Origin: an uncultured Pseudomonadota bacterium
Lineage (GTDB): Bacteria > Pseudomonadota > Alphaproteobacteria > Rs-D84
Assembly: GCA_902798205.1 (NCBI GenBank)
Contig: CADBVV010000002.1
Location: 2,056 to 66,055 of the forward strand
DNA: 64,000 bases
Reading direction: 5' to 3'
The notes below the pieces were generated by a model. That model did no database searches. It saw only the letters and a program-made list of their open reading frames with translations, and was not told the origin of the DNA. Both the position numbers and the translations under genes were made by a program. Shown here in pieces: positions 40,227-48,683 of the stretch; within the stretch, counting starts at the first letter, position 1; every line of letters begins with the position of its first letter.

Positions 40227-42533
40227 TTAAGGTTCGGTTGATGCTGTTGCCACACACGCATTTGGTTCCAGTTTTTTATCACTGTCCCCACCTGATAATT
40301 GCGTTCCACTTTCGCATAATCCACACATACCAGAATCATTTCTGTATTCATTTGCACCACAACTTAACACACACGAACCATTCCAAACAGTGTATCCGCT
40401 TTGACATTTACAATGATTGTTTACATAGCCTTCCATTGTTCTGTTTGCAGAAACAGTCCCACTTTCTGCAACAAATGAAGATTTTTCAGGGCACAATAAT
40501 GTTTGATAGAACAATTCAGATATGCCATTTATCAACAAACTTTGTCTTTTTGATTCAAGCAACCCTGTGCAAGAATTTGTTGTACAAGCGGTCCCATCTT
40601 CAGATGTTGCACAACCAGAAATATCTTCACATTGAACATTGCCTATTTGTGTTCCCATATCGCTGTCATATGCAAACACCGCATAACCACATGTCAACGC
40701 AACATTATAACATGCACCGGTTAAAACCTTGTAAACATTGTCTATTGATGCAGAACTTGTCCATGAAGTAATTTGGGTATTTTGTTGGTTATAACAATCA
40801 CGAACATCCGACATACAACTTGAAGCATAACTGGAAATAATTCTTGCCTGGGCGGCTTTGATATTAACCATTGCACGTTGTATATAACTTATAACGACTT
40901 CATTATATGGATTATATACTGGTGTCTTGCCAGTTTGTATATATGTGTAATCTTGGCATTTATCCAATACAGCACGGCACAATCCGCCATCTTTGACACT
41001 TGCACCCGTTCCAATTTTTTGCATTAAATAATTAACAACACAAGAACCATCATGTGTAGCACACATGGTGTCATTTGCAGAATTTTTAATAAAATCACCA
41101 TTTATTTTTGTGTTGTTATAACTGTTTTCAACTATACCATAAGGGTCATTTAAAAATGCGGTTATATTTGAAATGTTTTTACCCAACACAACCGTACCAT
41201 TTTCATCAATATACTTTTTGGTTGGGTCTAAACATTTTACATAATCATCACCACAGACCATATCGTCCAACATACATTTTTCCAGCGCACCAACACAGCC
41301 CTTGATATCATATTCGTTTTTATTTTGCAGAACCGCCAAACGTGCCTTTTGCAACATCAAATTAGCACTGCGTACATTGTTGGTTAATGTTTGATTTAAT
41401 TTTACCAAACCCTGTTCGTATGCGACACAGTCTTTATCAATTGCCAAATCATAATTGCCAGAAATTTGATCTTCTGTGCCACCTGCATCTTTGCAACGAT
41501 TCAAAACAGTCTTGCAACGTTTTTTTGCTTCACTGTAAAGTGCCTTGCCACGTTTCGAAGAAATATCAGCATTGCCAGAATTAAACAAATCCAATGAAAA
41601 CATATCTGATGAATCAGATGAAAAATCAAAATCCATATCCAACAAAGAATCTGCCGAAGAAGATGCAGTCAATGTTGTTGATGCAGTTGGATCTTTGATC
41701 ATATCGGCAATATCATCCAACATAGAACGCGTTTGGGTATTATCCTTGGTTTTGCCCATTTCCAATTCTGCTTCGGTTGCAGACATAATCGCACGAATTT
41801 CATCAGCAGACAAACCAACATAACGAATTCTTTGTGCAACATCGTTTAATTCTACATTTGCATCTTCTACCGCCTTTTGCGCCTTGGCATACTTTGCCAA
41901 ATTCGCAGAACAGGAACATCTTTTTTGATTTGCATCTACAACCGCACAAAATTGATCCATACATTCGTTATATTGTTGCTGACAAGTGCTGTTCAAATCA
42001 GATGTTTTTTCCAAGATATCTTTTGCTTCGGCCAAAGATTCTGCGGTAACAGTTTTTTGTTGTTTTTGACCACCAAATATAGACGCACGTGATTGAACGC
42101 CACGTATTTGTTCATCGATATTAGAACCTGTTTGAACACCAGTATTTCCAATTGTAGCGCGTCCGCCAACCTCCGCAGTGGATGCACGCAACACAATTCC
42201 TGCACGACGAAGTGCCGCGGTGTTATTTATGCTGGCCGCTTCTGTACGGGCATTACGACCAACAGTATTAACACCTGCTTCTAATGTGGCACGTTGTGTA
42301 TTTGTTCGATTACCGACAGAACGCGAAACGACATTTGCATTTGGTTTTGCAACCTGAACCGTGCGTGATATACCGCGCGCACTGCGATTTTTCACAGATG
42401 TATTTTCAGTGCGTTCAACACTGTCTGTTTTTACATTTTTATTTGGAATTACGCGGGATATAGAAACATCCGCCGCAAACGCATTTGCGGTACAAAAGAA
42501 CACCATGAAAAAGATAGTCGAAAACTTTCTCAT
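40227..42533 (-). CDS. Large secreted cysteine-rich protein, family member 1 (768 aa)
   Basis: Signal peptide MRKFSTIFFMVFFCTANAFA. An Arg/Ser/Thr/Asn/Val-rich region comes next, then the Cys motif CQQQYNECMDQFCAVVDANQKRCSC, coiled segments, many further Cys pairs, and the C-terminal HCKCQSGYTVWNGSC (EGF-like pattern). No known family recognised. Confidence 0.75.
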   Translation of the reverse strand: MRKFSTIFFMVFFCTANAFAADVSISRVIPNKNVKTDSVERTENTSVKNRSARGISRTVQVAKPNANVVSRSVGNRTNTQRATLEAGVNTVGRNARTEAASINNTAALRRAGIVLRASTAEVGGRATIGNTGVQTGSNIDEQIRGVQSRASIFGGQKQQKTVTAESLAEAKDILEKTSDLNSTCQQQYNECMDQFCAVVDANQKRCSCSANLAKYAKAQKAVEDANVELNDVAQRIRYVGLSADEIRAIMSATEAELEMGKTKDNTQTRSMLDDIADMIKDPTASTTLTASSSADSLLDMDFDFSSDSSDMFSLDLFNSGNADISSKRGKALYSEAKKRCKTVLNRCKDAGGTEDQISGNYDLAIDKDCVAYEQGLVKLNQTLTNNVRSANLMLQKARLAVLQNKNEYDIKGCVGALEKCMLDDMVCGDDYVKCLDPTKKYIDENGTVVLGKNISNITAFLNDPYGIVENSYNNTKINGDFIKNSANDTMCATHDGSCVVNYLMQKIGTGASVKDGGLCRAVLDKCQDYTYIQTGKTPVYNPYNEVVISYIQRAMVNIKAAQARIISSYASSCMSDVRDCYNQQNTQITSWTSSASIDNVYKVLTGACYNVALTCGYAVFAYDSDMGTQIGNVQCEDISGCATSEDGTACTTNSCTGLLESKRQSLLINGISELFYQTLLCPEKSSFVAESGTVSANRTMEGYVNNHCKCQSGYTVWNGSCVLSCGANEYRNDSGMCGLCESGTQLSGGDSDKKLEPNACVATASTEP

Positions 42534-48683: not shown

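Follow-up and report, generated by a model that had tools for sequence, protein, structure and literature searches.

What are the large, exported-type, cysteine-rich proteins encoded around the ribosomal protein genes rplU and rpmA in a gut alphaproteobacterium of the lineage Rs-D84, and where in the cell could they act? The question arose from a stretch of 64,000 nucleotides of an uncultured member of this lineage (GenBank assembly GCA_902798205.1, contig CADBVV010000002.1, positions 2,056 to 66,055), which is the window referred to below. A sequence-only reading of the window had described a multi-copy family of three giant secreted proteins, here termed M1, M2 and M3. Our computational analysis instead points to one pair of paralogs, M1 and M3, accompanied by further proteins with a similar cysteine pattern. 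The region comprises five genes in the order M3, M2, rplU, rpmA and M1, all on the minus strand according to the translations of their open reading frames (ORFs):

40227-42533, minus strand: M1, exported-type cysteine-rich protein of 768 residues, 32 cysteines in the mature form
42636-42902, minus strand: rpmA, ribosomal protein L27, between M1 and M2, recognised from its translation
42931-43230, minus strand: rplU, ribosomal protein L21, between M1 and M2, recognised from its translation
43405-45819, minus strand: M2, exported-type cysteine-rich protein of 804 residues, 30 cysteines in the mature form
45915-48683, minus strand: M3, exported-type cysteine-rich protein of 922 residues, 40 cysteines in the mature form, paralog of M1

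The ORFs of 768, about 804 and 922 residues, with M2 and M3 adjacent and M1 beyond rplU-rpmA, lie where the sequence-only reading had placed them, and every motif string that it quoted is present in the translations. The word "giant", however, is generous for proteins of 770-920 residues.

Relationships and cysteine pairing

A BLASTP comparison aligned residues 8-259 of M1 with residues 24-274 of M3 at E=6e-11 and added a second, colinear segment at E=0.007. When the ortholog alignments were compared as profiles with hhalign, probabilities of 97.7-97.9% were reached (E 1.9e-12 and 4e-13) over a module of ~85 residues, which consists of C-x6-C-x4-C-x9-C-x-C followed by a helix. The two proteins have their parts in the same overall order, and each combines a signal peptide, a basic region, this five-cysteine helix-hairpin module and a helical core with Cx6C motifs. 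Judged by these alignments, M1 and M3 are true paralogs, mainly through the ~85-residue module, in agreement with the ordered set of modules described for them earlier.

M2 did not join this pair. It showed no significant similarity to M1 or M3, with BLASTP E values of at least 0.38 and hhalign probabilities of 5-11% at full length and 0.2% with the cysteine modules alone. A hidden Markov model of the module, run against the six-frame translation of the window, matched M1 and M3 only; no further copies were found, and neither M2 nor a fourth cysteine-rich protein, M4, was matched. Since M2 was negative in BLASTP as well as in full-length and cysteine-module hhalign, we dropped the idea of a family of three, and M2 is, by the same comparisons, a separate orthologous group. 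Of the related cysteine clusters ascribed to M2, the short Cx6Cx4C motif stood, while any wider similarity to M1 and M3 did not. M4 lies near the right end of the window:

61326 to 64000 and beyond, minus strand: M4, cysteine-rich protein cut by the window end, at least 890 residues, 3.9% cysteine

M4 contains three C-x6-C-x4-C-x6/7-C modules (three Cx6Cx4C motifs were reached in 0 of 5000 shuffles) and two glycine-rich hydrophobic stretches near its C-terminus. It is encoded directly upstream of lpxD (60160-61215), a place that we take to be that of bamA and skp in many Gram-negative bacteria, and its orthologs adjoin M1 in two related loci (L050 and L055). M2 and M4 share only the Cx6C/Cx6Cx4C signature with M1 and M3; M4 may belong to the same cysteine theme as the other three, and the set appears to consist of one paralog pair plus two other proteins, M2 and M4, on this theme.

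In a heuristic reading, the N-termini of M1, M2 and M3 begin with a basic n-region that leads into a hydrophobic h-region and then an AxA-type site, which agrees with the Sec-type signal peptides assigned to them before. The putative cleavage sites are ANAFA↓AD in M1, PVAFA↓SAG in M2 and RSVFA↓DP in M3, and the signal-peptide-like segment is in each protein the sole hydrophobic stretch of at least 19 residues. The lipobox pattern [LVI][ASTVI][GAS]C, judged by eye, occurs in none of the three: Cys14 of M1 varies among orthologs, whereas the AFA↓A site is kept, and C26 of M3 (FFVC) is invariant, but the valine at -1 misfits the lipobox and the conserved VFA↓DP site follows.

Cysteines number 33 in M1, 31 in M2 and 42 in M3, of which 32, 30 and 40 follow the signal peptide. 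They account for 3.9-4.6% of the residues of the cysteine-rich proteins, compared with 0-2% in the recognised housekeeping genes of the window. As had been noted, many are closely paired, and the spacing is mostly Cx6C. M1 has nine Cx6C pairs, against a shuffle mean of 1.4 (none of 2000 shuffles reached nine), M3 has six (shuffle p ~0.01), M2 has three (shuffle p ~0.1, not significant alone) and M4 has eight. M1, M2 and M3 each have a single copy of the extended motif Cx6Cx4C, and M4 has three. Among 83 related loci, every ORF of at least 250 residues that has at least 2.5% cysteine together with Cx6Cx4C is an M1, M2, M3 or M4.

Parity, an excess of even cysteine numbers, serves as an argument for disulfide bonding in exported proteins, and the orthologs of M1, M2 and M3 all display it. 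The mature cysteine count is even in 108 of 117 M1, 108 of 117 M2 and 96 of 120 M3 orthologs (binomial p 1e-11 or lower, values that are overstated because the orthologs are related and not independent). The same was seen in 118 of 143 diverse M1 representatives. Counts span 22-66 across orthologs yet remain mostly even (80-92%), and 18 cysteines in the M1 core remain invariant among orthologs as low as 25% identity. That parity survives such large changes in number is strong evidence that the cysteines work in pairs, and we infer that they form disulfides. In the predicted helices of M1, cysteines at i and i+7 face the same side of the helix and so could staple a neighbouring helix.

Predicted architecture, known families and distribution

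The structure of M1 was predicted with AlphaFold from an alignment of 127 diverse sequences. The model has a mean predicted local distance difference test (pLDDT) score of 77 and a predicted template modelling score of 0.61, and most of residues 160-767 are above pLDDT 90. It replaced a model from a shallow alignment (40 sequences of at least 60% identity), which had reached a pLDDT of 59 and had given meaningless Foldseek matches. M1 is divided as follows, all on the minus strand:

Residues 1-20, minus strand: signal peptide
Residues 21-160 (42054-42473), minus strand: N-terminal basic region, Arg/Ser/Thr-rich, predicted disordered, net charge +13
Residues 161-285 (41679-42053), minus strand: module common to M3, helix hairpin with C-x6-C-x4-C-x9-C-x-C (CQQQYNECMDQFC...RCSC)
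Residues 287-313, minus strand: conserved acidic disordered loop (DSLLDMDFDFSSDSSDMFSLDLF)
Residues 323-630, minus strand: long helices with seven Cx6C pairs, from the model
Residues 631-650, minus strand: hypervariable cysteine-containing loop
Residues 652-678, minus strand: helix, from the model
Residues 681-768 (40230-40493), minus strand: C-terminal cysteine-rich beta-hairpin repeats, CxCxxGY... units

The basic region carries repeated [VI]-x-S-R motifs. Its pLDDT is below 50 at residues 14-103, 111-129 and 137-158, but residues 95-150 are highly conserved despite the predicted disorder (conservation 0.79 for residues 91-150). The Cx6C motifs coincide with predicted helices, and residues 161-680 make up a helical and presumably disulfide-stapled core. 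The short hairpins at residues 684-761 are cysteine-knotted, with strands above pLDDT 90. Conservation falls to 0.24-0.53 in the C-terminal repeats, which differ in number and sequence between species, and M1-type proteins reach up to 2338 residues.

M3 has the same layout of signal peptide, Arg/Ser/Thr-rich region, common module, helical core and C-terminal repeats. Its Arg/Ser/Thr-rich region is more basic than that of M1 (net +17, with 19 arginines and no lysine). Two of its parts were located precisely:

Residues 178-278 (47850-48152), minus strand: M3 copy of the module common to M1, CMESYYTCMDEIC...RCSC and helix
Residues 757-922 (45918-46415), minus strand: C-terminal cysteine repeats, C-x4-5-C-x2-[GN]Y-x6-7-C-x6-C units

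The repeats, ~3.5 copies of ~48 residues, are hypervariable (conservation 0.15-0.30, 35-57% gaps). M3 orthologs of 710-750 residues cover only 78% of the query; the core is this N-terminal 78%, and the repeats are absent from many orthologs. M2 combines a C-x6-C-x4-C-x4-C cluster near its N-terminus with a conserved coiled segment rich in Gln and Ala at residues ~120-200, variable inserts at residues 331-390 and 541-630, and a coiled segment at the C-terminus.

Elsewhere in the window, a protein of 413 residues (22298-23539, minus strand) carries, behind its signal peptide, an Arg-rich stretch that contains VSR motifs (PVVDVSRGEVSAR...NVSRRTV). Its N-terminal region recalls those of M1 and M3, and its C-terminus is weakly OmpA-like (NF053611, E 0.004). 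The likeness in VSR motifs may hint at a common envelope-targeting or anchoring motif.

The sequence-only reading could place the proteins in no known family, and neither could we. Against Pfam-A, M1, M2 and M3 gave nothing at cut-off: the best scores were 10-23 bits against cut-offs of 27-36, including TFIIA on the low-complexity Gln-rich stretch of M2 and a CPL1-like match of 10.1 bits on M3. NCBIfam gave nothing of note for the three, M4 had no match in the Pfam and NCBIfam scans, and four M1 orthologs were likewise negative. Searches of PDB sequences with the ortholog alignments of M1, M2 and M3 returned noise only; a weak ephrin receptor A2 match (E 0.79) was among the results. When the M1 model was compared with the PDB and BFVD using Foldseek, there was no match with E <0.1. 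Weak matches recurred to three-helix-bundle or spectrin-like structures for the core and to HER2/EGFR cysteine-rich domains for the tail (E 2-4, probability 0.1-0.2, 57-89 columns). The predicted fold of M1 is thus unmatched in the libraries searched. No barrel domain of type V secretion or inverse autotransporters was found in Pfam, and the M1 model is barrel-free, with beta-hairpins only at residues 684-761. No paper that mentions the three proteins turned up in the literature searched; cysteines, disulfides and the outer membrane are not topics of the Rs-D84 genome paper (PMC12306168).

Some orthologs carry a recognisable domain C-terminal to the core, PF09479 (cut-off 27 bits). It scored 74, 44, 56 and 139 bits in the M1 orthologs P0368, P0369, P0370 and P0372 and 27.1 bits in the M3 ortholog P0213, and it is an accessory domain of some members, not a defining one. 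This Listeria-Bacteroides repeat is typical of internalins and other cell-surface proteins. For two other M1 orthologs (P0051 and P0084), a precomputed table lists PF27023, which was not recovered in a local hmmscan of them.

Several known systems invite comparison. Chlamydial OmcB and OmcA are likewise Sec-exported, cysteine-dense (~4%) and envelope-associated in an obligately partner-dependent Gram-negative with a reduced genome; they too are lineage-specific and universally conserved within their lineage, with disulfides presumed to give mechanical stability. M1 and M3 differ from them in having no sequence or Pfam relation (the OMP3 and OMP6 families matched neither the window proteins at E<=1 nor the orthologs at E<=0.1). 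M1 is moreover predicted to be mainly alpha-helical, with i/i+7 staples and C-terminal repeats; M1 and M3 have hypervariable C-terminal tips, and cross-linking between M1 or M3 molecules is not indicated.

With the variant-specific surface proteins (VSPs) of Giardia and the helical-bundle proteins of trypanosomes, M1 and M3 would have in common a protease-resistant, disulfide-rich extracellular design of helical bundle and variable cysteine repeats, in which a conserved scaffold carries a variable exposed part. One such trypanosome protein (5vtl) is among the weak Foldseek matches of M1 (E 6.6, probability 0.06). The eukaryotic proteins, however, have transmembrane or glycosylphosphatidylinositol anchors and form large multigene families with antigenic switching, whereas M1 and M3 have apparently one copy per genome, no anchor, Cx6C instead of CxxC spacing and no significant structural match. 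The small disulfide-knotted beta-hairpins at the C-termini of M1 and M3, with their CxC/CxxGY patterns, resemble furin-like/EGF-receptor and CPL1-like repeats, but this likeness is limited to the last 10-20% of the proteins, reaches no cut-off in M1 or M3 and may be convergent. For CPL1-like (PF21671, cut-off 27.4 bits), M3 of the window scored 10.1 bits and its orthologs P0178 and P0192 scored 30.7 and 22.5 bits, on a single ~22-residue repeat; the furin-like/EGF-receptor and Giardia VSP families of Pfam matched no window protein.

Paired cysteines that staple neighbouring helices are also a feature of the Sel1-like Hcp proteins of Helicobacter, a gut-associated Gram-negative; these consist of alpha-helical repeats and are secreted or periplasmic. 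M1 and M3 are nevertheless much larger, differ in cysteine spacing, lack a 36-residue periodicity, and have a basic disordered N-terminus and a beta-repeat C-terminus; Sel1 repeats were not found in the window proteins (Pfam, E<=1). In the CHCH domain and the small Tims (twin-CX9C/CX3C), two cysteines on one face of each antiparallel helix similarly form two staples. The spacing there is x9 or x3 instead of x6, these proteins are mitochondrial and of ~10 kDa, compared with 770-920 residues in the exported bacterial proteins, and no homology exists. M1, M2 and M3 would thus represent a new family or families within the broadly familiar kind of exported, disulfide-rich envelope or surface proteins.

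M1, M2 and M3 each matched more than 1000 clusters at E<=0.001. The best 120 listed per protein were 50-100% identical to the query and unnamed or "hypothetical", and the named sources among the matches listed were gut "Alphaproteobacteria bacterium" metagenome-assembled genomes (MAGs) or Candidatus Enterousia, which NCBI places in Alphaproteobacteria incertae sedis and GTDB in the order Rs-D84. When 1.84 billion representatives were searched with an M1 profile, 714 proteins reached E<=1e-3 (representatives at 50% clustering) and 251 reached E<=1e-30; the best 150 of the 714 were all M1-type. A look-up for identical sequences returned no record for M1. In a scan of one genome per GTDB species, M1 relatives were present in 406 stretches, of which 80 were retained as loci. 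These belong to Enterousia, Alphaproteobacteria, "uncultured proteobacterium" or unclassified "bacterium" MAGs, with ruminants or horses as hosts where these are named, and one distant M1-type member is annotated as "Rickettsiales bacterium". The proteins thus appear restricted to gut Rs-D84/Candidatus Enterousia Alphaproteobacteria, as the earlier suggestion of lineage specificity had it. The suggested multi-copy organisation, in contrast, was not supported: all 80 retained loci come from different assemblies, which indicates apparently one copy per genome, and two loci have a second M1-type ORF.

The order PagL, M3, (M2), rplU, rpmA, M1, dnaQ(-), uvrD and two multi-transmembrane proteins recurs in dozens of independent MAGs. 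M2 holds this position in nearer relatives only and is missing in more distant genomes; many genomes have rplU-rpmA directly after M3, with M1 next. In two loci (L043 and L047), M3 and M1 are immediate neighbours without rplU-rpmA between them, and in the distant "Rickettsiales bacterium" MAG the M1-type gene is ~5 kb from rplU-rpmA. Because M3 and M1 can adjoin without rplU-rpmA, and because M2 is absent in some relatives, the constant feature is the M3-M1 pairing, and the interposed ribosomal genes are a quirk of synteny, not an operon partner. The interleaving with rplU-rpmA that first drew attention is accordingly real as synteny, but not as an operon.

In one relative (L004), M1, M3 and M2 are 86%, 76% and 66% identical to the window proteins, with 82% for UvrD; in a more distant one (L063), the values are 49% for M1, 57% for M3 and 59% for UvrD. 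M1 and M3 are diverging at a rate only a little above that of UvrD, and M2 diverges faster. A near-identical strain (L086, ENA k141_390063) was compared with positions 37.0-52.5 kb of the window. Zero to one difference was seen across PagL, M3, M2, rplU and rpmA, and the strains differ only in M1 and dnaQ. The 64 differing codons of M1 comprise 43 synonymous and 21 non-synonymous ones, which gives a ratio of non-synonymous to synonymous rates (dN/dS) of 0.13 overall and 0.04 in the structured core. From these ratios, the genes are functional and under purifying selection, not decaying; they are also intact, so the pseudogenisation raised earlier as a refuting condition was not found. The changes in M1 cluster at both ends (dS 0.55 in the C-terminal repeats compared with 0.04 in the core), and dnaQ differs in 19 synonymous codons. 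The comparison indicates a sharp recombination boundary in or beside M1, or a mixed-strain assembly: the 3' end of M1 and dnaQ resemble a tract imported by recombination or the product of such an assembly.

Transcription signals and neighbouring features

The following elements, all on the minus strand, are consensus matches and no proof of function:

48764-48792, minus strand: promoter-like site of M3, 11/12 match with TG
45893-45910, minus strand: terminator-like hairpin after M3, G+C-rich, then T-run
45834-45862, minus strand: promoter-like site of M2, TTTACA-17-TAAAAT
43378-43396, minus strand: terminator-like hairpin after M2, G+C-rich, then T-run
43294-43321, minus strand: promoter-like site of rplU, TTGACT-16-TATAAT
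42593-42613, minus strand: terminator-like hairpin after rpmA, 8 pairs, 6 of them G-C, then T-run
42547-42555, minus strand: extended -10 promoter-like element TGGTATAAT of M1, read from the sequence

The sites upstream of M3, rplU and M2 were the three best minus-strand matches in a scan of the 10-kb region, in which the total number of promoter-like sites was not above chance. Downstream of TGGTATAAT follow the M1 ribosome-binding site TAAGGAA and the ATG at 42533. The mechanical ORF of M2 reaches a GTG at 45894 (829 residues), but orthologs, the promoter-like site and an AAGAGAG ribosome-binding site favour the ATG at 45819 and thus 804 residues. The hairpin after rpmA sets the rplU-rpmA unit apart from M1; orthologs of rpmA and rplU in related loci match PF01016 and PF00829. 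Of the claim that each of the three genes has its own terminator, the G+C-rich hairpins after M3 and M2 were recovered, whereas M1 has only an A/T-rich one (ATCGAAC-AAAAT-GTTCGAT-TTTTT), seen by eye in the 32-nucleotide gap to the convergent dnaQ and missed by the scan. Overall, M1, M2 and M3 each look like a transcription unit of their own, with promoter-like and terminator-like elements that separate them from rplU-rpmA.

The window as a whole has ~36% G+C, one ribosomal RNA (rRNA) operon and many ORFs without any family. Other features were observed in it:

1-1492, minus strand: open frame of 497 residues running off the left end, signal-peptide-bearing GH10 xylanase (phmmer E 1e-56 to PDB 4pmx)
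30756-37357, one minus and four plus: five consecutive multi-transmembrane proteins of 456, 432, 396, 486 and 429 residues
49682-50056, minus strand: S1, 124 residues, signal peptide, 7 cysteines, CGCGC motif, between PagL and a VIT-family gene
50681-51019 and 51412-52209, minus strand: neighbouring ORFs with a common N-terminal motif (...A.MWM.RFIK.YKY...G..I.W...)
52833-57784, minus strand: complete rRNA operon of 16S, tRNA-Ile, 23S and 5S, with tRNA-Ile(GAT) only and no tRNA-Ala in the spacer

The xylanase frame has 55-61% G+C, compared with ~36% elsewhere, and the shift occurs at about 1.5-2.0 kb; the segment either was acquired horizontally or marks a chimeric join of the assembly. In an organism described as lacking sugar uptake and complete glycolysis, a xylanase is unexpected. 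The five multi-transmembrane proteins matched nothing in Pfam or NCBIfam, and the one of 486 residues had no PDB-sequence match. At least the last two are syntenic beside uvrD across the clade, and all five are candidates for lineage-specific transport or secretion machinery; a guess that they are VirB6/TrbL paralogs found no backing in Pfam, NCBIfam or the PDB. S1 keeps its position in many relatives and is 97% identical in L004, where UvrD is 82% identical; it has no family match. The two neighbouring ORFs, which also have no family match, lie between the VIT gene and the rRNA operon and look like small lineage-specific paralogs.

Cellular location and possible role

Members of Rs-D84 have genomes of less than 1 Mb and incomplete glycolysis, lack both the tricarboxylic acid cycle and a respiratory chain, and are considered dependent on partner cells (PMC12306168). 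The lineage, including Candidatus Enterousia, is widespread in the guts of ruminants, horses, chickens and humans and encodes many unexplained membrane and surface proteins; these bacteria are assumed to live off other cells (PMC12306168). For M1 and M3, we tentatively propose a protease-resistant, disulfide-stapled structure of the envelope or surface. After export by Sec and cleavage of the signal peptide, three parts would remain: a strongly basic, disordered Arg/Ser/Thr-rich region of ~140 residues; a rigid core of long alpha-helices, in which Cx6C cysteines would staple neighbouring helices by about ten disulfide bonds; and a C-terminal array of small cysteine-knotted beta-hairpins, variable between species in number and sequence and in some species extended by PF09479 repeats. 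The basic tail would hold the protein on the anionic envelope (lipopolysaccharide or peptidoglycan). The stapled core would serve as a stalk or coat that resists proteases, and M1 and M3 would probably form a hetero-oligomer in it because the two genes stay together; the variable repeats would make up an exposed tip facing the gut environment or a partner or host cell. M2, and also M4, would be further exported proteins, probably with an accessory part in this layer.

That the proteins lie outside the outer membrane, are anchored by their basic tails and form hetero-oligomers is inferred, as is their role. Hypervariable, length-variable C-terminal repeats next to a near-invariant core speak for an exposed location, as do the PF09479 repeats appended in some orthologs. 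In this respect, the surface, adhesin or envelope-scaffold role suggested earlier fits the data, although not as that of a three-member multi-copy family. Several observations weigh against our proposal. Core conservation at housekeeping level is unusual for adhesins. In M1, M2 and M3, neither a conserved lipobox, a transmembrane segment or a barrel nor a recognisable C-terminal sorting tag was found that would explain anchoring or translocation across the outer membrane, and the larger window ORFs include no secretion system, so the proteins could remain periplasmic. PF09479 is present in some orthologs only and absent from M1, M2 and M3 of the window. The motif that links M2 to the others is a single Cx6Cx4C occurrence (p ~0.04). 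The model of M1 is a monomer. No Dsb, thioredoxin-like or VKOR gene was found among the larger window ORFs, whose matches were to housekeeping and envelope genes, and as Rs-D84 reportedly lacks a respiratory chain, there is no evident oxidant for about 50 disulfides.

A scaffold on the inner face of the envelope, comparable to chlamydial OmcB and OmcA, would be disulfide cross-linked between the membranes and would stabilise a small partner-dependent cell osmotically and mechanically, perhaps most of all on exposure to oxygen during faecal transmission. We regard this as rather unlikely, even though several observations accord with it: a Sec signal without an outer-membrane export signal, a cysteine density of 4-4.6%, housekeeping-level conservation with apparently a single copy in each genome of the retained loci, a basic N-terminal region as a potential binder of peptidoglycan or membrane phospholipid, and the envelope genes for PBP1, PagL, LpxD and a TolC-like protein in the same window. 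Variable C-terminal repeats and acquired PF09479 repeats are, however, hard to explain for a protein that never meets the outside of the cell; the helix Cx6C pairs resemble intramolecular staples instead of intermolecular cross-links, and Pfam gave no match to the chlamydial OMP families. Proteins released altogether, as effectors, toxins or scavenging and binding proteins directed at a partner cell or host mucus, would need no membrane anchor; their disulfide-rich, protease-resistant design would suit the gut lumen, variable distal repeats would reflect changing targets, and an uptake of metabolites from other cells is presumed for the lineage (PMC12306168). This is nonetheless improbable in our view, as Pfam, NCBIfam, PDB sequences and Foldseek revealed no enzymatic or toxin domain, very slow core evolution and strict single-copy pairing are atypical for effectors, and the conservation of the basic tail points to proteins that stay on a polyanionic surface.

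The cysteines could instead be ligands of Zn, Fe or Cu in metal-binding or redox-buffering proteins. Four-cysteine clusters such as C-x6-C-x4-C-x4-9-C could in principle chelate a metal, but to our knowledge the spacing in M1, M2 and M3 matches no Zn-ribbon or Fe-S motif, and Sec export of unfolded chains excludes preassembled cofactors. The strong bias to even numbers despite counts of 22-66 and the predominance of isolated i/i+7 helix pairs, which suit helix-helix staples, make this very improbable, notwithstanding that an anaerobe reportedly without respiratory chains has no obvious disulfide oxidant (PMC12306168). Chance ORFs, pseudogenes or assembly artefacts are excluded by the evidence. 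The left window end does look chimeric or foreign (58% G+C GH10 xylanase), but more than 1000 orthologs of each protein, synteny in dozens of independent MAGs, the dN/dS of 0.13, invariant cysteines and a confident AlphaFold model stand against an artefact.

Extending the proposal of a disulfide-stapled envelope or surface structure, M1 and M3 would build, together with M2 and M4, a previously unseen surface organelle, a helical stalk or lattice of novel fold specific to Rs-D84. It would serve attachment to a partner cell and perhaps the uptake of metabolites from it, with its ~50 disulfides formed by a respiration-independent route. We consider this extension unlikely and offer it as a speculation.

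What the proteins mean for the lineage can be stated at several levels. M1, M2 and M3 together take up ~7.5 kb, close to 1% of such a genome. With cores conserved at about the level of UvrD, M1 relatives in 406 GTDB stretches and a predicted M1 fold that matches nothing in the PDB, these large proteins are prime candidates for lineage-defining envelope or attachment machinery, and they may serve as specific markers or antigens for Rs-D84. Even as an ordinary periplasmic scaffold, they would be a new, large and well-defined domain family worthy of an entry in Pfam. The dense and apparently obligatory disulfides in a non-respiring anaerobe raise the question of what drives oxidative protein folding there, and the relevance of these proteins for research on gut symbionts with reduced genomes may therefore be moderate to high.

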